From NCBI GenBank assembly GCA_036555105.1, contig DATBMA010000031.1, forward strand, positions 1,325 to 65,324: a DNA stretch of 64,000 nucleotides, read 5' to 3'. Below, in pieces: positions 2-62,455 of this stretch. Both the position numbers and the translations under genes were made by a program. Origin of the DNA: Acidimicrobiia bacterium (GTDB lineage: Bacteria > Actinomycetota > Acidimicrobiia > Spongiisociales > ZC4RG35). Numbering within the stretch: position 1 is the stretch's first letter; each line of letters begins with the position of its first letter. The notes below the pieces were generated by a model. That model was not told where the DNA came from, made no database searches, and worked only from the letters and a program-made list of their open reading frames with translations.

Positions 2-232
2 CCTGATCTCGTGATCGTCCTTGCCGTCGAGCCGGAGGCCGGGGTGAGCAGGCAGTCCCGCCCAGACCGGATCGGGAACGAGGGCATGGAATTCCAAACT
101 GTCGTACTCGACGCCTACCGGCAGCTGGCCGATGCCGAGCCCGAGCGCGTGGTCATCGTCGATGCCAACCGCCACGTCGATGACGTGGTGGAGGCGGCTT
201 GGAAGATCCTGCAGGAGCGGCTTCATGGCTGA
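2..232 (+). CDS. tmk: thymidylate kinase, C-terminal fragment (5' end outside window)
   Basis: The frame is open from the window edge. The tail (..DRIGNEG..VLDAYRQLA..VVIVDA..) resembles a dTMP kinase C-terminus. It lies directly upstream of holB, and its TGA 230-232 overlaps the holB ATG. Confidence 0.6.
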   Translation, partial: PDLVIVLAVEPEAGVSRQSRPDRIGNEGMEFQTVVLDAYRQLADAEPERVVIVDANRHVDDVVEAAWKILQERLHG

Positions 233-26339: not shown

Positions 26340-27547
26340 CTCCCGAAGGTTCCCCTGCGCCTCCTCCGATAGGTGACACCTCCTCGCAGCGGGACTTCTG
26401 GCGAAGGGTGACGGGAGCGGGTAGCTCCCTCGGACAGGCTCTCCTCCTCCCGACCCTGGCCTTCGTCACAGCCCTCATCATCGGGGGGCTGATAATCGCC
26501 CTGACCGACCTCGACGCACTGGGCCGCCTGACCACCGAACCCGGTGCCGCACTGGCCGACATGTTTCGCTCGGTGATCGATGCCTACAGGGCGCTGTTCG
26601 TCGGCATGTTCGGCTCGGTGCAAGCGATCTCGGAAGGCCTCTTTTCCGCAACTCCGCTGATCTTCGCCGGGCTCGGTGTCGCCCTCGGTTTTCGGGCGGG
26701 CCTTTTCAACATCGGTGCGCAGGGCCAGATACAGATGGGGGCGATGCTTGCCCTGTGGGTCGGGATCTACGTGACCGCCCCGGCCCTGGTTCACATCCCG
26801 CTCGCCTTGCTCGGGGGCTTCGTCGGGGGGATGTTATGGGGGGCGATCCCCGGATTTCTGAAGGCGCGCAGCGGCGCGCACGAGGTCATCACGACGATCA
26901 TGCTCAACTTCGTGGCCTTCTATTTCATGCAGTGGCTGCTGACCACTCCCACCCTTCAGCAGCCAGGCCGCGGCAACCCGGTGTCAATGCCGATCCAGGA
27001 GACCGCACAACTGCCGCTTCTGTTCGGAGAGCCCTATCGAGTGACAATCGCGTTCGTCATCGCGGTGGGAGCTGTCTTCTTGGTCCGCTGGCTGATCTTC
27101 CGGTCATCGCTCGGGTTCGAGTTGAGGGCAACGGGCTACAGCCAGCAAGCCGCTCGCTACGCCGGAATGAACGTCTCGTGGCTCATCGTCCTTGCCATGG
27201 CCATCTCCGGCGGCCTGGCTGGCGTGGCCGGGGCGAATCAAATCATGGGCTTGCCGCCGTACGATGCCTCGCCCTCGCTGGCCGGCACGGTCGGGTTCGA
27301 CGCCATCACAGTGGCATTGTTGGGACGGTCCCACCCGGTTGGGGTCTTGTGGTCGGCGCTGCTTTTCGGAGCCCTCAAGGCCGGTGGCCGCACCATGCAG
27401 GCGCAGGCCGGGGTGCCGCTCGATCTCATCGTTGTGTTGCAAGCTCTGATCGTCATGTTCGTGGCAGCACCGGAGCTGGTGAGGGTGATCTATCGGATCA
27501 AGCCCAAGTCCAACGCCCTGGGCGCCCAGGCGGGAGAGGTCTCATGA
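26336..27547 (+). CDS. ABC transporter permease
   Basis: This is a polytopic membrane protein. GTG 26336 overlaps the ATPase stop. It belongs to the BMP-type operon. Confidence 0.85.
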   Translation: MTPEGSPAPPPIGDTSSQRDFWRRVTGAGSSLGQALLLPTLAFVTALIIGGLIIALTDLDALGRLTTEPGAALADMFRSVIDAYRALFVGMFGSVQAISEGLFSATPLIFAGLGVALGFRAGLFNIGAQGQIQMGAMLALWVGIYVTAPALVHIPLALLGGFVGGMLWGAIPGFLKARSGAHEVITTIMLNFVAFYFMQWLLTTPTLQQPGRGNPVSMPIQETAQLPLLFGEPYRVTIAFVIAVGAVFLVRWLIFRSSLGFELRATGYSQQAARYAGMNVSWLIVLAMAISGGLAGVAGANQIMGLPPYDASPSLAGTVGFDAITVALLGRSHPVGVLWSALLFGALKAGGRTMQAQAGVPLDLIVVLQALIVMFVAAPELVRVIYRIKPKSNALGAQAGEVS

Positions 27548-28821
27548 TCGACACCCAAACCGCCTCCGCCGGCGATGTGAAGATGCGCGCCACGGCCGAC
27601 GAACGGCGCTCGACCGCGATCGGAGTGGTGCTGCTGGTGCTGGCGGGGGTGGTCGTGTGGGTGTTCGGCCTCGGCACCGAGCCCGGCGAGTCCGCCTCTT
27701 TCGGTCTGGGATTGCCTGGCTCGTCCAGCGCCGATCTCAAGTGGGTGGTGGACCCTCGCATCCTTTCGTTTGTCGTAGCCGGGCTCCTCGCCTACTTGGG
27801 GGTGCGCCGCATACAGCGGGCCCGGCCCACCTGGGCGAATGCCGCCCTCGGGCTTGGCATTGGGCTGTTCGTGCTTTCGTTTCTCGCCTGGTCTGCCGCC
27901 GGCCAGTCGTTCAGCCTGGTCGGGATGCTGCGCTCGACGGTTACCTCATCGGTGGCGATCACGCTGGGAGCCCTCACGGGCCTCATGTGTGAGCGGGTAG
28001 GGGTGATCGACATCGGGATCGAAGGCCAGTTGCTCACCAGTGCTTTCGTCAGCGTCGTCCTCTCAAGCGCGTTCGGGACCCTGGCCGGCGTCGTCGGGGG
28101 AATGCTGACCGGGGCCTTGTTGGGGTGGCTGCTGGCCTGGCTGGCCATTCGCTTCCGGGTGGATCAAATCATCGTCGGAGTGGTGATCAACATCCTGGCG
28201 CTGGGCCTCACCTCATATCTCGCCAGCCGCATCCTGACGGTGGCCCAGGACCTGAATGCCCCGGAGCGAGTCCCGTCGGTGCCGATTCCGGGCCTCTCCG
28301 AGATCCCGGTGCTCGGGCCGATGTTCTTCGATCACAACCTCTTCGTATACGGCATGTTCATCCTGGTGGGGGTGCTTCAGATCGCCCTGTTCCGGACCCG
28401 CTGGGGCCTGCGCTCCCGCTCCGTGGGCGAGCACCCCAAGGCGGCCGACACGGCCGGCATCAACGTCTACCGGGTCCGGTACCGCAATGTGATCCTCGGC
28501 GGGCTGATCGCGGGATTCGGCGGGGCCTATCTGGCCCTTACCGTCGTCTCCCGGTTTGAGGAGAACCTGACAGGAGGGATCGGCTTCATCGGCCTGGCGG
28601 CGATGATCTTCGGGCGCTGGATGCCGGTGGGGGCCCTGGCTGCCGGACTTCTCTTTGGCATCTCCACGGCACTCTCGGCCAAGCTGAGCGTGTTGGGGAC
28701 GCCCATCCCCTCCGAGTTCCTGTTGATGATCCCCTACCTGGCAACCATCGTGGTGGTGGCGGGACTGGTGGGTCGGGCGCGTCCTCCTGCCGCGGACGGA
28801 CAGCCTTACATCCGAGGGTGA
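27544..28821 (+). CDS. ABC transporter permease
   Basis: ATG 27544 overlaps the upstream stop. The 26755-27543 part of the listed ORF is an out-of-frame overlap of the previous permease. Confidence 0.85.
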   Translation: MIDTQTASAGDVKMRATADERRSTAIGVVLLVLAGVVVWVFGLGTEPGESASFGLGLPGSSSADLKWVVDPRILSFVVAGLLAYLGVRRIQRARPTWANAALGLGIGLFVLSFLAWSAAGQSFSLVGMLRSTVTSSVAITLGALTGLMCERVGVIDIGIEGQLLTSAFVSVVLSSAFGTLAGVVGGMLTGALLGWLLAWLAIRFRVDQIIVGVVINILALGLTSYLASRILTVAQDLNAPERVPSVPIPGLSEIPVLGPMFFDHNLFVYGMFILVGVLQIALFRTRWGLRSRSVGEHPKAADTAGINVYRVRYRNVILGGLIAGFGGAYLALTVVSRFEENLTGGIGFIGLAAMIFGRWMPVGALAAGLLFGISTALSAKLSVLGTPIPSEFLLMIPYLATIVVVAGLVGRARPPAADGQPYIRG

Positions 28822-55548: not shown

Positions 55549-56115
55549 ATGAACCCCGTTCTCGGATCCCTGTTGGCGTCGCTCGGAGTGGTTGCGCTCG
55601 CATACATCGGCTATCGGCTGTTGTCCGCTTGGGCGGAACGAGCCATTGTTCGCGTCGCCCAGCGTGGCGGTGCCCCCGGGGCCGAATATCGGGCCAGGTC
55701 GCTGTGGTCGGTAGGCCGGCGATTGGTCTTCATCGTCATCCTGCTGGCGGTCATGGTCACGATCATGAGCATCTGGGGGGTCAGCTCAGCTGCTCTGGTG
55801 GCGGTGGCAGGAAGCGTCGGGGTGGCAGTCGGCCTGGGCGCTCAGGGGCTGGTGCGGGACATGATCGCTGGGTTCTACATACTGGCCGAGAACCAGTTCA
55901 GCATCGGCGACCAGGTGAGCATCACCGGGGTGGAGGGCGAGGTGATCGACATCCAGCCCCGGGTCACGGTGCTACAAGACCGCCGGGGCCGGGTGTATTA
56001 CGTGCCCAACGGCTCGATCGTGGTCACCACCAACAAGACCACGGCCGCCTCACCTCGGATTCTCTCGGCGGCTGATGAGGACCCGGACCGGCGACCGGAT
56101 ACCCTTCCGGGATGA
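55549..56115 (+). CDS. small mechanosensitive channel (MscS family)
   Basis: Has 3 TMs and the pore/beta-domain motif GAQGLVRDMIAGFYILAENQFSIGD. Confidence 0.75.
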   Translation: MNPVLGSLLASLGVVALAYIGYRLLSAWAERAIVRVAQRGGAPGAEYRARSLWSVGRRLVFIVILLAVMVTIMSIWGVSSAALVAVAGSVGVAVGLGAQGLVRDMIAGFYILAENQFSIGDQVSITGVEGEVIDIQPRVTVLQDRRGRVYYVPNGSIVVTTNKTTAASPRILSAADEDPDRRPDTLPG

Positions 56116-57143
56116 CCTCAGACGAAGACCGCATCGCCCTCTTCCTCGACTATGAGAACCTGGCCATCGGGGCGAGAGATGCCTTGGGCGGCATGCAGTT
56201 CGACTTCCGGCCGATCGCCGATGCCCTGGCCGAGCGGGGTCGCGTGGTGTCGCGCCGGGCGTACGCAGACTGGTCGATGTTCGACGAGGACCGGCGGATG
56301 CTCACCCGCAATCATGTGGAGCTGATCGAGATCCCCCAGCGGCTGGGAGTGGTCCGTAAGAACGCGGCGGACATCAAGCTGGCAGTCGATGCCACCGAGC
56401 TCGCCTTCGAGCGGGAGTATGTGACCACTTTCGTCATATGTACCGGCGACTCCGACTTCACACCGCTGGTCCACAAGCTACGCGAGCTGAACAAGAAGGT
56501 GATCGGGGTGGGCGTGAAGGCTTCGACCTCGGCGCTGCTGCCGCCCGCCTGTGACGAGTTCCTCTTCTACGAGAACCTGGAGGGAGTCGAGACGAGGGAG
56601 GCTGCCAACGGCAAGACCAAGCCCAAAGAGGCGGCCACCACCCCTGCCACCGAGTCGGGGGTGGAGGGGATCGAGGGGCTGATCACGACCACCCTGGGGG
56701 GCCTCCAACGGTCGAGTGGGGAGGCGGTCCTGGCGTCGACTCTCAAGCGGGCGTTGCTTCGCAAGGACTCGACCTTCTCCGAGGCGGACTATGGATTCCG
56801 TGCGTTTGGCGAGCTGCTGCGGCATCTCGAGGAGAAAGGTGTTGTCGAGCTGACAGATGGACCGGCCCGCGGTGACCCGGTCGTCCAGTTCCCGGCCAGC
56901 GGCGGGGGCGAGCAGGAGGCATTCACCCTCCTGGCCTCGGTGGTGGCCGACATGCAGAAGCGCAACGGGGTCCCGATGCTCTCTGGGCTCAAGAACCAGG
57001 TCCGCAAGCGCAATCCCGACTTCTCGGAGAAGAAATTCGGGTTCGGAGGGTTCCTTCAGTTCTGCCGGGCTGCCCAGAACCAGGGCCTGATCGAGTTGGC
57101 CTGGAACGAGCAGTCAGGTGACTACGAAGTGCGGGTTCCTTGA
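56112..57143 (+). CDS. NYN (LabA-like) domain protein with two OST-HTH/LOTUS domains
   Basis: The NYN core reads IALFLDYENL..AYADW..KNAADIKLAVDA..TGDSDFTPLV. Two C-terminal HTH-like repeats follow. Confidence 0.75.
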   Translation: MTSDEDRIALFLDYENLAIGARDALGGMQFDFRPIADALAERGRVVSRRAYADWSMFDEDRRMLTRNHVELIEIPQRLGVVRKNAADIKLAVDATELAFEREYVTTFVICTGDSDFTPLVHKLRELNKKVIGVGVKASTSALLPPACDEFLFYENLEGVETREAANGKTKPKEAATTPATESGVEGIEGLITTTLGGLQRSSGEAVLASTLKRALLRKDSTFSEADYGFRAFGELLRHLEEKGVVELTDGPARGDPVVQFPASGGGEQEAFTLLASVVADMQKRNGVPMLSGLKNQVRKRNPDFSEKKFGFGGFLQFCRAAQNQGLIELAWNEQSGDYEVRVP

Positions 57144-58378
57144 CCGAAACCGCCGATGTGGTGGTTGTGGGGGCGGGGATCATCGGGGCATCGATCGCAT
57201 ATCAGCTGGCGAGGCATGGAGCGGGACGGGTTGTGGCCCTCGACAAGGGCGAGGGCCCGGCCGAAGGTTCGACCGGCGCCTCCTCTTCCATCTGCCGTTG
57301 TCGTTACACGCATCCGGAGGTGGTGCGTACCGCTTTCCACGGCCAGGAGGCATTTGGCAACTGGGCGGCGTTCACCGGCCTCGACAACCCACGCTCGGGC
57401 CTGCGGCGCATCGGGGTGTTGTGGATGTTCGATCGCGATGCCGGCGCAGTGGGAAAGGACGCCGACCGCCTCACCCGTGAAGGGGTGAAGGCGGAGGTCG
57501 TCGGCCCTCAAGATGTAAGTGTCCGCTTTCCGGCTCTTTCGACCTGCGTCGAGCCGTTCGACCTCGATGGGGAAGTCGACCACGACTGCCGCCAAGGTGA
57601 AGCATTCCTGTTCGAGGCTGAGGGTGGCTACGCGGAGCCGACCGGCGCCAACCAGGACCTTATCGAGGCGACCGAACTGGCAGGAGGCGAGGTCAGGTTT
57701 CGCTCGAAGGTGTCGGCCGTGCGCAGGTCCGGTGGCAGGGTGATCGGCGTTGCCCTCGAGAGCGGCGAAACGCTCGACGCGGGGCTGGTGATAAACGCAG
57801 CCGGCCCTTGGTGCAATCGCCTCAACGAGCTGGCAGAAGTGGAGCTTCGTTGGACCCTCACCCCGACCCGGGTGCAGACCCTCTATCGGGATTGGCCTTC
57901 CGAGCTCGGCCGGTTGCCTGTGGGGGCGGACAGTTCTACTGGTATCTACTTCCGCCCTGAGCTCGGGACCGGTCAGGTGCTGGTCGGCTCGGTCCTCCCC
58001 GAAGACGAAGAGGAGATCGTGAGCGACCCGGATCACTTCAAGCGAGTCCCGGATCCGCCATTTCGGGAGCTGAAGATGGCTGCTTTCCACCACCGCGTAC
58101 CTGCCCTGGTCGCGCGAGGAGAGATTGGGGGCCTGGCCGGCCTCTACACGATCAACCGGGAAGACGTGCATCCCGTCCTCGGCCCCACCGGCCTGGATGG
58201 ATGGTGGGTGGCGAACGGGTTCTCCGGGCATGGCTTCAAGCTGGCTCCCGCCATCGGGTCGATGATCGCCCAGGCCGCAACCGGCCGGGCACTCGAGTAC
58301 GACACCGATGTCCCCATGGCTTTCTTCTCGGTCGACCGTCAGCCTCTCGACCTGTCCGTCAAGCACGTGCTGGCCTGA
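57140..58378 (+). CDS. FAD-dependent oxidoreductase (DAO/sarcosine-oxidase-beta-like)
   Basis: Has the dinucleotide fold VVVVGAGIIGASIAYQLA. The start codon is TTG. Confidence 0.8.
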   Translation: MTETADVVVVGAGIIGASIAYQLARHGAGRVVALDKGEGPAEGSTGASSSICRCRYTHPEVVRTAFHGQEAFGNWAAFTGLDNPRSGLRRIGVLWMFDRDAGAVGKDADRLTREGVKAEVVGPQDVSVRFPALSTCVEPFDLDGEVDHDCRQGEAFLFEAEGGYAEPTGANQDLIEATELAGGEVRFRSKVSAVRRSGGRVIGVALESGETLDAGLVINAAGPWCNRLNELAEVELRWTLTPTRVQTLYRDWPSELGRLPVGADSSTGIYFRPELGTGQVLVGSVLPEDEEEIVSDPDHFKRVPDPPFRELKMAAFHHRVPALVARGEIGGLAGLYTINREDVHPVLGPTGLDGWWVANGFSGHGFKLAPAIGSMIAQAATGRALEYDTDVPMAFFSVDRQPLDLSVKHVLA

Positions 58379-58423
58379 GACCATCGCACGGTGAGACGGT
58401 GCGACCGTGAGACCGTGCGTCGC
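58376..58423. repeat. octamer tandem-repeat array G (6 units, mixed orientation)
   Basis: Units are TGAGACCA TCGCACGG TGAGACGG TGCGACCG TGAGACCG TGCGTCGC. The first unit contains the stop codon of the FAD oxidoreductase. Confidence 0.8.
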
Positions 58424-58466
58424 GTTGACCACCTGAGGCCTCGTCGGACCGCTAAGGTCTCAACGC

Positions 58467-58526
58467 GTGAACAGCGTTCGCTTCTTCTATTACGCCTTTA
58501 CCTGGGCCGGGCCCGGGTCGGTGTGA
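58467..58526 (+). CDS. candidate aromatic-amino-acid leader peptide (19 aa): (M)NSVRFFYYAFTWAGPGSV
   Basis: GTG 58467 to TGA 58526. Six of 8 consecutive codons are Phe/Tyr/Trp. It lies upstream of a terminator-shaped hairpin and a chorismate mutase gene. It is not in the ORF track because it is too short. Confidence 0.6.
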   Translation: MNSVRFFYYAFTWAGPGSV

Positions 58527-58550
58527 TCGTCTGAAAGCGAGAGTCGCCCA

Positions 58551-58583
58551 CCCGGAGCCCGAGGGCTCCGGGTTTCTTCATTT
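58551..58583 (+). terminator. attenuator terminator hairpin with U-tract
   Basis: CCCGGAGCC-CGAG-GGCTCCGGG is followed by TTTCTTCATTT. The upstream segment GGGCCCGGGT (58509-58518) can pair with the same 5' arm as an antiterminator. Confidence 0.6.
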
Positions 58584-58614
58584 CCGGCGCCCCATGAGAC
58601 AGCAGGAGATAGCC

Positions 58615-59676
58615 GTGGAACGAAGAGCCGCCAGGATCGATTCCGGTCCGACTTCGGTCGTGACCGTTGGACGGGTGCGAATCGGTCAGGACCCCTTCCC
58701 CGTGTTGGCCGGTCCCCACACGGTCCGATCGGAGCGCCAGATCAGAGAGCTGGCTGCCATGGCGGTTGACCACGGCGCCGCCGTCCTCCGCAGTCGCACG
58801 TTCCTGGCTCCGCACATGCCGCCGGGGTCGGTCCCGCCGAATGGCGACGCCATCGAGCAACTGGAGGCGGCAGGAAGGGAAGTAGGGCTGCCAACCGCCA
58901 CCCAGGTTCACGACACCCGGCAGGCCCATAGGGCGGCAGCAATGGTCGATCTGATCGAGGTCGGCTCGCAACGCATGCAGGACTTCGAGCTGCTCAAGAC
59001 CCTGGGACGGATCGAGAAGCCGGTGATGCTGCGCCGTGGCCAATCCGCCACGCTCGACGAGCTCCTGTGGGCGGCCGAGTACCTGTTGGCGGAGGGCAAC
59101 TCCGACGTCATCCTGGTCGAGCGCGGCATTCGCACGTTCGCCGGAGCGGAGTCGGCGACGCTCGACCTTGGGGCGTTGCCCAAGCTGCGGGAGATGACCC
59201 ACTTGCCGGTGCTGGTGGACCCAAGTCATGCGAGCGGCGCTGCCGCCCGTCTGCAGCCTCTGGCGCTTGCTGCACAAGGCGTCGGCGCAGATGGGCTCAT
59301 CCTGCAGATCGCCGATGGCTCGTCGACCTCCGTGCCTCTGGAGCTAGACCGCACCAGCTTCGCCGATCTCATGACGGCCCTCGGGATCGAGCGGCTGCGG
59401 GACCGGATCGACTTGATCGACCGCCACATCGTTCGGCTCCTCTCTCGACGCCAGGACCTGGCACTTGAAATCGGGGTGGCAAAGATGCTGCAGGGGATGC
59501 CGATTCAAATCCCCGAGCGCGAGCGAAAGCTGCTCTCCGACCTCGAGGACGAGGCTGTGCACTGGGGGGTCGACATCGGGCACGTGCGAGCCCTCTTCAC
59601 GCTGGTCCTGGCAGAGTCGCGTCGCCTGCAGCACGAGATGCGAGATGCGGAGAAAGATCTCCTGGTAGGGGAGTGA
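58615..59676 (+). CDS. DAHP-synthase-like (type I-beta fold, catalytic residues substituted) fused to AroQ chorismate mutase
   Basis: GTG 58615 is preceded by AGGAG at 6-nt spacing; an alternative ATG lies at 58594. The N-domain has ..LAGPHTVRS..ERGIRTF..VLVDPSHA... The C-domain has LRDRIDLIDRHIVRLLSRRQ..VAKM..PERERK..AESRRLQ. Confidence 0.8.
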   Translation: MERRAARIDSGPTSVVTVGRVRIGQDPFPVLAGPHTVRSERQIRELAAMAVDHGAAVLRSRTFLAPHMPPGSVPPNGDAIEQLEAAGREVGLPTATQVHDTRQAHRAAAMVDLIEVGSQRMQDFELLKTLGRIEKPVMLRRGQSATLDELLWAAEYLLAEGNSDVILVERGIRTFAGAESATLDLGALPKLREMTHLPVLVDPSHASGAAARLQPLALAAQGVGADGLILQIADGSSTSVPLELDRTSFADLMTALGIERLRDRIDLIDRHIVRLLSRRQDLALEIGVAKMLQGMPIQIPERERKLLSDLEDEAVHWGVDIGHVRALFTLVLAESRRLQHEMRDAEKDLLVGE

Positions 59677-59759
59677 GGCCGAATACGCCTGCGACTTAGG
59701 CTGGCAGGATCGCTCGACTGCCCATCCTCGATGCCGGCGAAACCCGCCTGGCCCTGCCG

Positions 59760-60563
59760 ATGGAGCTAGCCATCGAGGCAATGGAGCTTGCCTTCTCTGA
59801 CGATCGCGAGGTGCCGGTTCGCTCCGCGGTGGGAGGAGTGTTGTTCATGCCGGGAAGGGTCGGCCCTCACCTGGGTCTCAAATCGGTCTCCACCGTCCCC
59901 GGCAATCCAGCCGGCATTGTGGTGCTGTTCGCACCAGACGGCTCGCCGGTTGGAATAGTCGACGGGCCCACGCTGACCGCCATCCGGACCGGGGCCGCGG
60001 CGGGCCTGGCGACTCGGCTCATGTCACCCCCGGAGGCAAGGGTCCTCGCCCTCCTGGGGGCCGGGGCAATGGCGGCGGATCAGGTGGCCGCGATCAGAGC
60101 CGTGCGTACGATCGAGCGCCTCTTGATATGGAGTCGGAACCCCGACCGGGCACGGGAGAAGGCCAAAGAACTGGGTGGCGAGGCCGTAGCCGATCCGCGC
60201 ACAGCGGTGAGCCAGGCAGACGTCATCAGCACGGTGACGCCTTCTGCCTCTCCGCTGTTCGGGGACTCCGACCTCGTGGCGAATGTGCACATCAACGCCA
60301 TGGGAGCTTTTACACCCGCCATGGTCGAGGTCCCCTCTGACACCGTCCGCCGCTCACTTGTGGTGGTCGACGACCTCGAGGCAGCCGCCGCCGAAGCCGG
60401 CGACCTTCTGCAGGCGGGACGCGTGGCTGATGGCACTATCTCCGACCTCTTGTCCGGACGGCTGTCGGTCTCGGGTGGAAGACCGACCCTGTTCAAGTCC
60501 GTCGGCATCGCCAGCCAGGACGTGGCGGCTGCTGCTGCCGCGCTGGGAGTCTTGAGAAGGTGA
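59760..60563 (+). CDS. ornithine cyclodeaminase / mu-crystallin family protein
   Basis: Contains TAIRTGAAAGLATRL, LGAGAMAADQVAAI (Rossmann) and HINAMGAF. Family-like N-terminal residues continue upstream of the ATG (see findings). Confidence 0.75.
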   Translation: MELAIEAMELAFSDDREVPVRSAVGGVLFMPGRVGPHLGLKSVSTVPGNPAGIVVLFAPDGSPVGIVDGPTLTAIRTGAAAGLATRLMSPPEARVLALLGAGAMAADQVAAIRAVRTIERLLIWSRNPDRAREKAKELGGEAVADPRTAVSQADVISTVTPSASPLFGDSDLVANVHINAMGAFTPAMVEVPSDTVRRSLVVVDDLEAAAAEAGDLLQAGRVADGTISDLLSGRLSVSGGRPTLFKSVGIASQDVAAAAAALGVLRR

Positions 60564-60615: not shown

Positions 60616-61629
60616 TCAGATCACTGCCAGGCCTTCGGCCGCCAGCGCCGCCCGCAGTGCCGACTCCTCCTCGGGGCGGACCGACAGTGTCAGCACGCCG
60701 GCTCCGCCTTCTGTCGAGTGGCGGAGCTCGAGGTCGCGGAGGTCGACCCGGCTGGCAGCCAGAGCCATGCCGACTCTGGCAACCTCCCCAGGCCGGTCAT
60801 CCAGCATGACCCTGAGGGCTGCCACCGGCGCCGCCAGACTGCGTCGTGCGGCTGAGGCAGCCTCCAGGTCGGCTCGGATGGCCGCCTGGTCGCCTGACTC
60901 GATGAGGCCCGCCCATTGATCGAGATCGGCGGCCAGGGCGCGCAGATGGCGGGCCACGGAGGCGGAGTTGCCGGTCAGGATCTCGGGCCACCATGACGTG
61001 TCGGAGGCGGCGACCCGGGTGATGTCCCGGAAACCCCCGGCCGCCAGCTGTCTGGCAACGGCGCCATCTACCTGTCCGACCATGGCTGAGGCCACCACCT
61101 GGGGGAGGTGGCTGACCGCGGCCACCGCCTCATCGTGGTCGGCGGCGCTCATCAGCAACGGGATGGCCCCGAAGCTCGCAACCACCTCCCCGACCTTGTC
61201 CAGGTCGGCGCCGTCTGCGCCGTCGGTGGTGAGGATCCACGATGCTCCCCGGAACATCGTCGGGGTCGAGCGGTCTGGGCCCGAGGTCTCCCTGCCTGCC
61301 ATCGGGTGGCCGCCAACGAACCGGGTCGAGCCTGCTGACTTCACCACCGGGGCCTTTACCCCCGCCACGTCGGTAGCCAGCTTTCCCACCGGCACCCTTG
61401 GCAGCTGTTCAAGGATCGCCTTCAGCGGCCCGCACAGGAATACGAGTTCGGCCGACCTGATGGCCTGCTCCTCGGAGGCGGCCTCCTCAACCGCTCCACG
61501 CCGGGCGGCGGCAGTGAGGGCATCAGGATCCGCATCCCAACCAAACACGTTCCATCCGGCGGCCCTCAGAGCGAGGCCGACCGAGGCCCCGATCAGGCCG
61601 GTCCCGATTACGGCGGCGTCACCCTCCAT
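60616..61629 (-). CDS. tyrA: prephenate dehydrogenase with C-terminal ACT domain
   Basis: The start is ATG 61629. Has the Rossmann motif AVIGTGLIGASVG. The last 11 nt of pheA (61619-61629) overlap the tyrA start. Confidence 0.85.
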   Translation of the reverse strand: MEGDAAVIGTGLIGASVGLALRAAGWNVFGWDADPDALTAAARRGAVEEAASEEQAIRSAELVFLCGPLKAILEQLPRVPVGKLATDVAGVKAPVVKSAGSTRFVGGHPMAGRETSGPDRSTPTMFRGASWILTTDGADGADLDKVGEVVASFGAIPLLMSAADHDEAVAAVSHLPQVVASAMVGQVDGAVARQLAAGGFRDITRVAASDTSWWPEILTGNSASVARHLRALAADLDQWAGLIESGDQAAIRADLEAASAARRSLAAPVAALRVMLDDRPGEVARVGMALAASRVDLRDLELRHSTEGGAGVLTLSVRPEEESALRAALAAEGLAVI

Positions 61630-62455
61630 CCGGAGCACTTCCCTCGTGGGTCGCCGCCCGGTAGGTGCCCAGGATGTGGAGATCGGCGATGGTGGTAGGG
61701 AGTGGGTCGAATATCGCCTGCCGGCCAGTCTCACCGGGGGGATGCAACAAGTCGACGAAGAAGCGGTAGCGCCAGGCAGCCTCGCTGGGCCGTGACTCGA
61801 TCCTGGTGAGGTTGGCGCCGCGCAGACCCAAGTCCGTCAGCACCAGCGCCAGGGCGCCTGGCCGATGGAGTGTTGTGAAGGCAATTGAGGTCTTGTCGGC
61901 GTCGTCGGGGACGGGCTGGGGTGAGGGGGCCACGACCACGAACCGAGTCGTGTTGTGCTCCTGATCGATCACATCGCGCTGCAGGACCTCGAGGCCGAAG
62001 CGCCCGGCGGCCGCCTCAGGGGCGAGGGCGGCGAGAGCGGGGTCGGCCAGCTCGGCAACTTCTCTGACCGCACCCGCAGTGTCGTGGGTTGGGCGCGGGT
62101 ACCACCCACGCTCGGCGATGACCGTCTCCGCCTGGGCCAGGGCCTCCGGATGGGACAGGACCTGGCGGATCGAGCCGAGTCCGGCGCCGGGAAGGCCGAG
62201 CAGCGAGTGCCGGACCTCCACCAGATGCTCGGCGACTATCTGGACGCGGCCCGGCAACAGCCGGTCGAGCACCGCCAGCACACTCCCCGTCGAGGAGTTC
62301 TCGATCGGTACGACCAGCCGCTCGATCTCACCGGCCGCCAGCGCCTTGAAGGACATCGGGAAGCTCTCGAGGCCGATCAGGTCGGCGCCGGCGAACAACG
62401 ACTCGGCTGCCTGGTGGGAGTAGGAGAGCTCCTCGCCCTGGTAGCCGACTCGCAC
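61619..62455 (-). CDS. pheA: prephenate dehydratase
   Basis: Has a PDT domain (VGYQGEELSYSHQAA..PIENSSTGSV) and an ACT domain (KTSIAF..PGAL..ANLTRIESRP). Confidence 0.9.
   Translation of the reverse strand: MRVGYQGEELSYSHQAAESLFAGADLIGLESFPMSFKALAAGEIERLVVPIENSSTGSVLAVLDRLLPGRVQIVAEHLVEVRHSLLGLPGAGLGSIRQVLSHPEALAQAETVIAERGWYPRPTHDTAGAVREVAELADPALAALAPEAAAGRFGLEVLQRDVIDQEHNTTRFVVVAPSPQPVPDDADKTSIAFTTLHRPGALALVLTDLGLRGANLTRIESRPSEAAWRYRFFVDLLHPPGETGRQAIFDPLPTTIADLHILGTYRAATHEGSAPDGG

Follow-up and report, generated by a model that had tools for sequence, protein, structure and literature searches.

Why should a reading frame of only 19 codons, crowded with codons for aromatic residues, stand directly in front of a gene for aromatic amino-acid synthesis? 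The locus lies in a stretch of 64,000 nucleotides (65% G+C), referred to here as the window, which was analysed as a whole. A first-pass annotation of the sequence had proposed that the short ORF encodes the leader peptide of an attenuator placed before the downstream gene. Conservation, folding, ribosome-position modelling and sibling loci all support this core claim, and we consider it highly probable that the element is a ribosome-mediated, leader-peptide transcription attenuator, which would sense charged tRNA-Phe/tRNA-Tyr and control a gene for a fusion of DAHP synthase and chorismate mutase (DAHPS::CM). Acidimicrobiia are abundant in soil, in the sea and in sponges and, to our knowledge, almost nothing is known about their gene regulation; the element is a concrete and testable candidate for how this class controls entry into aromatic amino-acid synthesis.

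The leader ORF, its putative promoter and the downstream gene

Re-reading of the sequence confirmed the ORF and its run of aromatic codons as first annotated: codons 58482-58505 read FFYYAFTW, six of the eight being aromatic. An eight-codon stretch with at least six F/Y/W codons is unique in the six frames of the window, and none was found in 30 dinucleotide shuffles of it. The ORF is predicted to be a translatable leader. Elsewhere in the window, the reading SWWWRDWW at 28748 was considered as a Trp leader and rejected, as it is an out-of-frame reading within the ORF of a 688-aa membrane protein. The features of the locus are collected in Table 1.

Table 1. Features of the leader region and the regulated gene (positions in the window).
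Feature	Position	Strand	Basis or remark
-10-like hexamer TAAGGT (TANNNT)	58453..58458	+	8 nt 5' of leader start codon
Leader-peptide ORF, GTG..TGA, 19 codons, (M)NSVRFFYYAFTWAGPGSV	58467..58526	+	read from sequence; conserved at orthologs
Segment 1, anti-antiterminator 5' strand, including regulatory codons and ACCTGGGC	58474..58507	+	predicted from folds
Regulatory codons FFYYAF (TTC TTC TAT TAC GCC TTT)	58482..58499	+	modelled stalls; F/Y and synonymous variation in relatives
Trp codon TGG	58503..58505	+	W in 7/68 leaders; modelled stall leads to termination
Segment 2: final leader codons (GGGCCCGGGTCGGTG), stop codon, spacer	58508..58548	+	predicted from folds; 2:3 compatibility
Predicted intrinsic terminator hairpin (segments 3 and 4), ACCCGGAGCC-CGAG-GGCTCCGGGT, -21.7 kcal/mol	58550..58573	+	sequence, folding, conservation; arms 58550-58559 and 58564-58573
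Terminator T-run TTCTTCATTT	58574..58583	+	sequence; T-rich run kept in alignment
Segment 5 (TCCGGCGCCC), complementary to terminator 3' arm, conserved	58583..58592	+	minimum-free-energy fold; alignment
Shine-Dalgarno AGGAG of regulated gene	58604..58608	+	sequence; AGGAG column conserved in alignment
Bifunctional 3-deoxy-7-phosphoheptulonate (DAHP) synthase with C-terminal chorismate mutase domain, 353 aa	58615..59676	+	Pfam, homologs

The product of the downstream gene matches the Pfam families DAHP_synth_1 (1.6e-38) and CM_2 (2.8e-17) and has homologs in Acidimicrobiia. DAHP synthase is the first enzyme of aromatic amino-acid synthesis and catalyses the entry step of the common pathway. The N-terminus reads VERRAAR.., the ortholog consensus being MERKA..; the start was placed at GTG 58615-58617, not at the ATG 58594 of the ORF list, because the ortholog alignment indicates so. 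The leader stop and the gene start are separated by 88 nt, with a strong hairpin and a T-run between them. The window neighbours of the gene (an FAD oxidoreductase, an OCD-like gene, pheA and tyrA) are not syntenic at any of the orthologous loci, and the element therefore belongs to the DAHPS::CM gene rather than to the gene upstream of it. A separate inverted repeat is found at 58385-58419, immediately 3' of the stop codon of the FAD-oxidoreductase gene.

A TANNNT hexamer is positioned 6-11 nt (mode 10) 5' of the leader start codon in all 68 aligned loci, and the 60 nt upstream contain only two other matches. As this spacing leaves no room for a Shine-Dalgarno sequence, it fits a leaderless leader mRNA, an idea that had been raised from the distance between TAAGGT and the GTG in the window and that is compatible with the conserved placement. 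At standard spacing no convincing -35 element was seen in the window, and a scan of the window with a generic sigma-70 model returned no match. We infer that transcription starts at or just before GTG 58467; with 8-10 nt between the -10 element and the start codon, the message may carry a 5' UTR of 1-4 nt rather than being strictly leaderless. Other actinobacteria provide documented cases of leaderless leader peptides (PMC8079986, PMC5784534).

Alternative folding of the leader RNA

The 141-nt region folds with a z-score of -2.75. The minimum-free-energy structure computed with RNAfold is an alternative pairing of 58508-58518 with 58550-58561, while the centroid structure consists of the terminator and a hairpin at 58490-58526. 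Segment 2 has in these folds two alternative partners, segment 1 or the 5' arm of the terminator, the latter pairing being the antiterminator. Taken together, the two structures place the anti-antiterminator over the regulatory codons and the antiterminator over the terminator 5' arm.

The antiterminator described in the first-pass annotation, in which leader codons 15-18 pair with the 5' arm of the terminator, is thus the minimum-free-energy structure itself, and the comparison of energies suggested there gives -21.7 kcal/mol for the terminator hairpin against -34.5 kcal/mol for the antiterminator domain. The GC stem is also present, followed by its T-run, but is 10 bp long instead of the 9 bp listed. 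The pairing scheme has to be extended: the regulatory codons pair with the spacer 3' of the leader stop, forming a long helix 1:2 whose 5' arm spans 58474-58507 (-33.6 kcal/mol for the segment 1:2 domain). The T-run of the window is interrupted. A single occurrence of the pattern CCCGGAGC-N(2-12)-GCTCCGGG is present in the window, against an expectation of 0.01, and no second copy of the scaffold was found elsewhere in the 64 kb.

Conservation across Acidimicrobiia

Eighty orthologous DAHP-synthase::chorismate-mutase loci were gathered from species-representative genomes by alignment-based search, a search with the exact peptide having given no match. Almost all are labelled Acidimicrobiia, and the genomes are nearly all metagenome-assembled. 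The ortholog proteins are 46-58% identical to that of the window, whose closest relative (79% identity) lies outside the set. Alignment and codon counts cover 68 of these loci, and the footprint modelling 66.

All 80 loci carry a short ORF 60-120 nt upstream of the gene together with a terminator and a T-run. The leader ORF has 17-26 codons in each of the 80, with a start codon (ATG or GTG) that precedes the aromatic run by 4-6 codons, a consensus of M..RF[FY]xY[FY]xFTG.. and conserved start and stop positions. Seven loci were initially scored as lacking the motif; the scaffold is nevertheless present in all seven, the leader having no more than 1-2 aromatic codons in five of these, and a small clade has kept the scaffold with leaders of only 1-2 aromatic codons. 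A DNA-pattern search gave 119 matches, of which 14 had no leader ORF; almost all of these 14 are labelled as other than Acidimicrobiia, and they were treated as chance matches.

Within the leader, the sequence comparison points to two regimes of constraint. At the aromatic positions the amino-acid class is kept through synonymous and F/Y changes (112 TTC and 29 TTT; 58 TAC and 48 TAT). The tail is variable as a peptide (GPRPG, GLRPG, GSEPG, GPRLRRA, GPAARVEG), with nucleotides of the CCGGG type retained. DAHPS-CM leaders contain on average 3.1 F and 1.6 Y codons, with at least one Y in 67/68, and Trp is found in only seven of the 68. For the Phe that precedes Thr, 66 of the 68 loci use TTT.

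In the alignment, helices 1:2, 2:3 and 3:4 of the RNA show compatibility far above that of slid controls. The terminator stem is near-invariant, 99.7% of alignment cells in helix 3:4 being paired across the 68 loci, and its loop varies from about 3 to 9 nt. The apical helix of 1:2 is compatible in 89% of cells, and helix 2:3 in 94.7%, compared to 22-60% when the partner is slid. Pairing of the aromatic run with its own spacer yields -14.4 kcal/mol, compared to -11.5 kcal/mol with the spacers of other loci, a difference equalled in 0 of 2000 permutations. Segment 5 is paired with the terminator 3' arm in 89% of cells (29-63% in slid controls), and its helix shows many one-sided GC/GU and UG/UA changes. 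A possible role of segment 5 as an anti-SD decoy, keeping the freed GCUCC arm off the Shine-Dalgarno sequence, gained no support from SD accessibility: with native instead of shuffled segment 5 the site was more accessible in 37 loci and less in 29 (Wilcoxon p = 0.09).

Changes on both sides of a pair are limited to seven cells in helices 1:2 and 3:4, with none in 2:3. The near-invariance of the four segments leaves next to no true covariation, and the structural support drawn from the alignment is that of conservation and compatibility, not of covariation. In the comparison of relatives that the first-pass annotation proposed, ORF and hairpins are present in every locus, and covariation is minimal in a near-frozen sequence.

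Ribosome position and the proposed mechanism

The effect of a ribosome on the fold was modelled by partition-function folding with a 28-nt footprint for 66 real loci and 132 shuffled controls. The median probability of the terminator is 0.973 with no ribosome and 0.975 with a ribosome at the stop codon, falling to 0.007 at the best aromatic stall. For the window the corresponding values are 0.98, 0.99 and 0.21, with stalls along the FFYYAF codons giving 0.21-0.63. Under the footprint model, a terminator probability above 0.8 at the stop codon combined with one below 0.3 at a stall is found in 79% of real and 2% of shuffled loci; a simpler mask yields attenuator logic in 86% and 3%, respectively. 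Under the footprint model 14 of the 66 loci do not fit attenuator logic, and for the window the terminator probability falls no lower than 0.21. The folding model is one of equilibrium, whereas attenuation is kinetic.

The Trp codon behaves differently. It lies 3 nt 5' of the antiterminator arm, so that a ribosome stalled on it covers the arm, and the modelled stall gives a terminator probability of 0.99. Of the stalling logic first put forward, which embraced Phe, Tyr and Trp codons, the part concerning Phe and Tyr is upheld by the modelling and the part concerning Trp is not. Since Trp is not conserved and a stall there would favour termination, the sensor is taken to be Phe/Tyr, and the Trp codon of the window is probably incidental rather than part of the sensor.

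On the basis of the conserved parts and of the pairings, computed above, that exclude one another, the following course of events is proposed, in which the transcription start, translation of the leader, termination in vivo and the response to amino acids are predictions. Transcription would begin a few nucleotides past TAAGGT, at or just 5' of GTG 58467, and the leader mRNA, having no Shine-Dalgarno sequence, would be translated in a leaderless or near-leaderless manner. When Phe and Tyr are ample, the ribosome would reach the stop codon at 58524 and cover segment 2; the 3:4 terminator and T-run would then form, ending transcription near 58583. With no translation at all, segment 1 would pair with segment 2 and the terminator would form again. 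During a shortage of charged tRNA-Phe or tRNA-Tyr, a ribosome stalled on FFYYAF would keep segment 1 apart, and segment 2 could then pair with the 5' arm of the terminator (58545-58561). With the antiterminator formed there would be no terminator, and RNA polymerase would read into the gene at 58615.

Sibling elements at pheS and pheA

The same RNA scaffold is found upstream of pheS in five loci, with leaders of two Phe codons and no more than one Tyr, and about 340 nt upstream of pheA in one locus, whose leader has three Phe codons. The motifs of these leaders are FLF, FAF, FAF, FAF, FTF and FPARFAF, with one Tyr in two of the pheS leaders. In the sequences compared, the codon content of the leader tracks the regulated gene. 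This suggests that pheS and pheA are wired by the same device in Acidimicrobiia. It is also a clean case from nature in which the RNA scaffold of an attenuator stays fixed and the sensor codons alone determine what is sensed.

A wider reading is possible, which we hold only tentatively and regard as rather doubtful. The element would be an undescribed, Acidimicrobiia-wide cassette of five alternating segments (1:2 / 3:4 versus 2:3 / 4:5), near-frozen in sequence, which has been duplicated and re-targeted through its sensor codons to make up a small aromatic regulon at the RNA level on leaderless mRNAs, with an additional function for segment 5 and the UUUACC motif. If true, F and Y codons would precede several paralogs of DAHP synthase::CM, whereas the leaders of pheS and pheA would hold mainly Phe codons, and the function of segment 5 and of the invariant UUUACC would be one absent from classical attenuators, for instance as a lock after read-through or as a link to the translation or stability of the message.

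Alternative explanations

The same switch might be run by a trans-acting factor, either a TRAP- or PyrR-type RNA-binding protein or a small ligand, with the ORF incidental or secondary. This would account for an RNA core (TTTACCGG, CCCGGAGC..GCTCCGGGT) that is near-invariant among loci whose proteins are only about 50% identical, and for core variation that is mostly one-sided, as expected if the sequence itself is recognised; the TTT before Thr is a constraint at the nucleotide level, and the fifth conserved segment has no assigned role. Invariance is, however, also explained by the two partners that each segment has to satisfy, segments 1 and 2 being peptide-coding in addition. We regard such a factor as quite unlikely, given that the start, frame, stop position and aromatic run of the ORF are kept through synonymous changes, that the leader codons shift with the regulated gene, that ribosome-position modelling alone reproduces the switch, and that no Rfam family matches the locus even at E <= 10.

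The conservation of FxFTG(P), apparently as a peptide, and the proposal that leader genes can raise downstream translation via re-initiation (PMC4833913), would fit an ORF with a purely translational role (coupling, re-initiation or a nascent F-T-G-P arrest peptide) or a functional hydrophobic micropeptide, the hairpin then being an ordinary structural element. In this motif the T is always ACC, and E, D or W may replace the G with the nucleotides still reading ACC-(G/T)(G/A)N. Beyond FTG the tail is free as a peptide and constrained as RNA, and the pheS and pheA leaders keep the scaffold and lose most or all of their Tyr codons. With the 88 nt, strong hairpin and T-run that separate the leader stop from the gene also set against coupling, we find this explanation very unlikely.

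It is even conceivable that the palindrome CCCGGAGC..GCTCCGGG acts as DNA, as an operator bound by a dimeric aromatic-pathway transcription factor, and not as an RNA terminator; it is a perfect inverted repeat with very little variation, and conservation without covariation is typical of DNA bound by a protein. The spacer between the arms, at about 3 to 9 nt, is hard to fit with the fixed geometry of a dimer, and the palindrome lies some 90 nt downstream of the conserved -10 element. The T-run is always 3' and on the coding strand only, the changes observed are strand-specific and G:U-compatible, and the two complementary segments upstream are conserved equally, all of which makes an operator extremely improbable. 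A chance ORF next to the terminator of the upstream FAD-oxidoreductase gene, to which the hairpin's position on the same strand 172 nt past that gene's stop codon might point, has practically no likelihood left and is effectively refuted by the comparative data, as the upstream gene is syntenic in 0/80 loci while ORF and hairpin occur in all, the aromatic run has no counterpart elsewhere in the window or in its shuffles, and the upstream gene has an inverted repeat of its own directly after its stop codon.

Comparison with known systems

A cmscan of 57000-60000 against Rfam 15 at E <= 10 gave only two spurious matches, to eukaryotic or archaeal families; T-box, riboswitch and curated leader families (Phe_leader, Trp_leader RF00513) had zero matches in this region. 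The Acidimicrobiia version of a Phe/Tyr attenuator was not found in Rfam 15 or in the literature searched, and the aligned loci could directly seed a new RNA family. Further uses lie in annotation, of unlisted short ORFs and premature terminators, and as a design template; the understanding of attenuation is unchanged by the element.

Escherichia coli pheL-pheA and pheM-pheST (Rfam Phe_leader) are attenuators with the cognate codons in segment 1. With these and with trpL, the paradigm of the class (Rfam RF00513, named in PMC4046766), the element shares alternative 1:2, 2:3 and 3:4 helices and an intrinsic terminator, and its siblings at pheS and pheA serve the same types of gene as pheM and pheL. 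It differs from the E. coli leaders in having no Shine-Dalgarno sequence and a leader start that is probably at or near the 5' end, in combining Phe and Tyr codons before the entry enzyme of the common pathway, in its fifth conserved segment, and in showing zero covariance-model match at E <= 10 to Rfam leaders of this type.

Among actinobacteria, leaderless leader ORFs are reported for ilvB in Corynebacterium glutamicum and C. diphtheriae and for trpL1, leuL and ilvL in Streptomyces lividans (PMC8079986, PMC5784534). These attenuators have no 5' UTR, which matches the spacing from -10 to start codon seen here, and hairpins with or without a U-run, but they respond to other amino acids at other genes, and a Phe/Tyr one is not listed for Streptomyces. 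The attenuator-like leaders of Streptomyces coelicolor ilvB and leuA are reported to show non-classical behaviour upon mutation, and an earlier survey of Actinobacteria detected no RNA element conserved at genes for Phe or Tyr (PMC1262725). More distantly, the uORFC-13-1 motif of Acholeplasma has been predicted in front of aroF (Brewer et al. 2021, PMC8632094). It resembles the element in placing a predicted Phe-codon uORF, adjoining an intrinsic terminator, before a 3-deoxy-7-phosphoheptulonate synthase, and differs in belonging to another phylum, in being led by an RBS and in having a U run that codes for at least one Phe; the motif was unmatched in the Rfam scan of 57000-60000.

An experimentally studied analogue is aroR-aroF of C. 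glutamicum, in which ribosome stalling under Phe limitation enhances transcription (Neshat et al. 2014, J Biotechnol 190:55), Tyr supply being reported as without effect (summarised in PMC11802643, PMC4046766). By the published description of aroR (F-Y-F, upstream of aroF), on which the likeness is based, this is a short Phe/Tyr leader before a DAHP synthase gene in the same phylum, and it provides a precedent for a type of leader that the first-pass annotation had found unfamiliar. In these accounts, aroR belongs to a corynebacterial set of attenuators that includes leaderless leader peptides, has three aromatic codons as opposed to the 4-6 found here, and comes from another class of Actinomycetota; aroF is one of two DAHP synthases, for which the accounts mention no chorismate mutase fusion, in contrast with the DAHP_synth_1 and CM_2 fusion of the window. 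The attenuation mechanism itself is textbook and analogues are already known; what appears new, against Rfam 15 and the literature searched, is its Acidimicrobiia-wide Phe/Tyr version.

Leader and hairpins in the window

The element upstream of the DAHP synthase::chorismate mutase (DAHPS-CM) gene is, as predicted by computation, very probably a leader-peptide attenuator. This interpretation was first made from the sequence alone; it is now supported by conservation, by folding with the ribosome at defined positions and by sibling leaders before pheS and pheA. On re-reading, the -10-like hexamer, leader ORF, hairpin and AGGAG lie where the first-pass annotation had placed them. Segment 1 contains the predicted sensor codons FFYYAF, and segments 3 and 4 are the terminator arms.

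Features of the element and of its neighbourhood, with free energies in kcal/mol
Feature	Position	Sequence or description	Free energy	Source
NYN-domain gene	56112-57143	C-terminal OST-HTH/LOTUS		
Imperfect inverted repeat	58385-58419	CGCACGGTGAGACGGT / ACCGTGAGACCGTGCG		
-10-like hexamer	58453-58458	TAAGGT		read from sequence
Leader ORF	GTG 58467 to TGA 58524-58526	19 codons, (M)NSVRFFYYAFTWAGPGSV		read from sequence
1:2 domain (anti-antiterminator)	5' arm 58474 to 58507		-33.6	
2:3 domain (antiterminator)	58508-58518 with 58550-58561		-34.5	RNAfold
3:4 hairpin (terminator)	58550-59 / 58564-73	perfect 10 bp, ACCCGGAGCC / GGCTCCGGGT, loop CGAG	-21.7	sequence and terminator scan
Tract directly 3' of hairpin		TTCTTCATTT		read from sequence
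Segment 5	58583-58592	A2 alignment columns 169-178		
Shine-Dalgarno	58604-58608	AGGAG		read from sequence
OCD-like gene	59760-60563 (+)			
Prephenate dehydrogenase	60616-61734 (-)			
Prephenate dehydratase	61619-62455 (-)			

The window has a G+C content of 65%. FFYYAFTW is its sole eight-codon stretch with at least six F/Y/W codons in all six frames, and 30 dinucleotide shuffles produced no such stretch; the hairpin pattern has a single match, where 0.01 would be expected. The region 58460-58600 folds with z = -2.75 (RNAfold). The comparison of its two folds, proposed with the first-pass annotation, gives the antiterminator as the minimum free energy (MFE) structure; the centroid contains the terminator and a hairpin at 58490-58526. 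The W-rich SWWWRDWW (28748-28771), considered as a possible trp leader, is read out of frame within a membrane-protein ORF of 688 aa (26755-28821) and is rejected as a leader.

The downstream ORF matches Pfam DAHP_synth_1 (1.6e-38) and, C-terminally, CM_2 (2.8e-17). Homolog alignments place its start at GTG 58615-58617, with VERRAAR.. facing the consensus MERKA.., and not at ATG 58594, the start in the mechanical ORF list. Downstream of the gene come an ornithine cyclodeaminase/mu-crystallin family (OCD-like) gene and then the convergent prephenate dehydrogenase and prephenate dehydratase genes, whose listed ORFs share about 116 nt; inspection showed no aromatic leader ahead of this pheA. The NYN-domain gene, two genes upstream, is unrelated to the attenuator. 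The inverted repeat (16-nt arms, 81% complementary, 3-nt gap) begins 7 nt past the FAD-oxidoreductase stop, 5' of the leader -10, and could be a terminator hairpin of that gene, without a T-run, or an operator.

Orthologous loci and family anatomy

The homologs of the window protein are bifunctional DAHP synthase/chorismate mutases; those with a source name come from Acidimicrobiia or unclassified Actinomycetota metagenome bins, and their identity to it does not exceed ~60%, save for a single partial metagenome sequence (79%). The proposed search of relatives, an alignment-based scan of one genome per species, gave 429 relatives; the analysis used the best 80 loci and recovered the leader ORF and hairpins upstream of orthologues. 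A short ORF with the motif ..RF[FY]xY[FY]xFTG(P/L)... is present in 74 of these 80 loci, ending 58-121 nt before the gene; the rest also have the scaffold, five of them with no more than two aromatic codons and at least one, as in MSTRPHTSQITRMFTGPGSV. The loci L053, L055, L056, L057 and L064 form a subclade with the whole scaffold, 1-2 leader aromatic codons and the terminator 3' arm GGCTTCGGG; its sensor may be weakened or re-tuned. The hairpin could instead be the terminator of the upstream gene, but in none of the best 80 loci does the FAD oxidoreductase, the OCD-like gene, pheA or tyrA lie within 2.5 kb; leader-gene adjacency is thus the sole conserved linkage, and this alternative is highly improbable.

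In a 68-sequence DNA alignment, the aromatic run follows 4-6 codons after the start codon, which is ATG or sometimes GTG. The nearly invariant TTTACCGG is followed by a CCGGG-type segment with the stop codon shortly 3' of it, a variable spacer, the near-invariant terminator ACCCGGAGC-loop-GCTCCGGGT with its T-run, and AGGAG and the gene start. Judging from this alignment, two different kinds of constraint are visible, on amino-acid class in the aromatic run and on nucleotides after it. Within the run the codons differ (TTC 112, TTT 29; TAC 58, TAT 48) but the residue class does not, and F/Y swaps are frequent; past it the peptide varies (GPRPGTA, GLRPGRE, GSEPGLT, GPRLRRA, GPAARVEGTR) and the nucleotides are kept. 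TTT is the Phe codon preceding Thr in 66/68 loci, a constraint at the nucleotide level.

All 68 loci have a TANNNT hexamer 6-11 nt (mode 10) 5' of the leader start codon, with only two other matches in the 60 nt upstream and, in many loci, TTGCNN ~17 nt further upstream. This spacing leaves no room for a Shine-Dalgarno sequence and is consistent with a leader mRNA that is leaderless or nearly so, as had been suggested for the window; leaderless leader peptides are documented in other actinobacteria (PMC8079986, PMC5784534).

Helix conservation and ribosome position

Pairing is compatible in 89% of cells for helix 1:2 and 99.7% for 3:4 (slid controls, both helices counted together, 16-60%), and in 94.7% for 2:3 (22-60%). 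Two-sided pair changes are very rare, so that of the proposed covariation check compatibility and conservation stand and covariation does not; the scarcity is likely because each segment has two partners and segments 1 and 2 also encode peptide. Across loci, the codon run pairs at -14.4 kcal/mol with its own spacer versus -11.5 with the spacers of others, a difference reached in 0/2000 permutations. In the predicted structures a long 1:2 helix has the regulatory codons at its base, paired with the spacer past the stop codon (at one locus, GCUUCUUC with GAAGAAGC).

The ribosome was modelled as a block of unpaired nucleotides, and the terminator-helix probability was taken from the partition function. 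Attenuator logic was scored as a probability above 0.8 with the ribosome at the stop and below 0.3 on stalling.

Median terminator probability by ribosome position, and share of loci with this modelled logic
Ribosome model	No ribosome	At stop	Best aromatic codon	Real loci	Shuffled controls
All 5' nucleotides masked	0.97	0.98	0.003	86%	3%
Footprint -15..+12	0.973	0.975	0.007	79%	2%

For the window the modelled values are 0.98 without ribosome, 0.99 at the stop and 0.21 at the best aromatic stall (first three aromatic codons 0.21, second Tyr 0.40, TTT 0.63). A trans-factor switch, a DNA operator, and a micropeptide or translational uORF are each very improbable as explanations of the element.

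A fifth conserved segment lies just 3' of the T-run and matches the terminator 3' arm by complementarity (paired in 89% of cells, slid controls 29-63%; 71 one-sided G:C/G:U or U:G/U:A changes). Its pairing is present in the window MFE whenever 2:3 forms, and in the read-through fold it makes a hairpin with the U-run as loop. Being transcribed after the T-run, it can have no effect on termination; a test of it as a shield of the Shine-Dalgarno sequence against the freed GCUCC arm came out negative.

Amino acids probably sensed, and sibling leaders

The first-pass annotation had included Trp in the sensor, a part of the claim that fails: W occurs in just 7/68 leaders, and a modelled stall at the Trp codon leaves the terminator at 0.99. 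In the window, 3 nt separate this codon from the antiterminator arm that follows, so stalling on it would be expected to promote termination. On leader codons and modelled stalls, the predicted sensor is Phe/Tyr, without Trp. This fits the enzyme, since the chorismate mutase domain feeds the Phe/Tyr branch only.

The scaffold DNA pattern TTTACCGG..CCCGGAGC..GCTCCGGG, run against species-representative genomes, gave at least 120 matches, nearly all in genomes labelled Acidimicrobiia. Among the matches listed, 119 loci were read: 96 lie ahead of DAHPS-CM genes, among them distinct paralogs from a single genome; three are cut by contig ends; and 14, almost all in genomes not labelled Acidimicrobiia, lack a leader ORF and were taken as chance. 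The remaining siblings, in other Acidimicrobiia, comprise five before pheS, the phenylalanyl-tRNA synthetase alpha-subunit gene (L087, L109, L115, L150, L193; Pfam tRNA-synt_2d 1.5e-61 to 1.7e-96), and one ~340 nt upstream of pheA, the prephenate dehydratase gene (L152; PDT 6.2e-48). In some genomes there are two DAHPS-CM paralogs, of the AGPCAVE and AGPRAVE types, and each has a separate copy of the leader with different coding (L117 and L121 in one MAG, L125 and L149 in another).

The pheS/pheA leaders (RRRFLFTGP, SQSFAFTGP, LRLFAFTGH, RQHFAFTGP, YASAFTFTGP, FPARFAFTGP) keep FTG and the hairpins, with the CCCGGAGC..GCTCCGGG terminator, and have two or three Phe codons, with Tyr absent or present once. 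One Tyr occurs in two of the pheS leaders, whereas Tyr is present in 67/68 DAHPS-CM leaders, a contrast that is suggestive only, as the pheS sample is small. Translation-based sensing predicts that, on a constant scaffold, the sensor codons change with the regulated gene, and this pattern would lend it independent support.

Comparison with known systems

Rfam 15 gave no family match to the element at E <= 10, and the literature searched yielded no paper on leader peptides and attenuation in Acidimicrobiia. For the Phe and Tyr genes of Actinobacteria, a survey from 2005 turned up no conserved RNA element (PMC1262725). As a candidate for a new RNA family the element is a good one, given its modular re-use for pheS and pheA, its frozen five-segment scaffold and its predicted leaderless arrangement. 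It is not a new mechanism: this kind of regulation is already well known, with pheL-pheA, pheM-pheST and trpL of E. coli as textbook attenuators. In Acholeplasma, a Phe-uORF motif lies upstream of aroF (PMC8632094). In C. glutamicum, the DAHP synthase gene aroF is under attenuation by the leader peptide aroR (F-Y-F), with a response to Phe limitation (PMC11802643, PMC4046766); compared by description only, aroR resembles the element in placing a leader with Phe and Tyr codons before a DAHP synthase gene.
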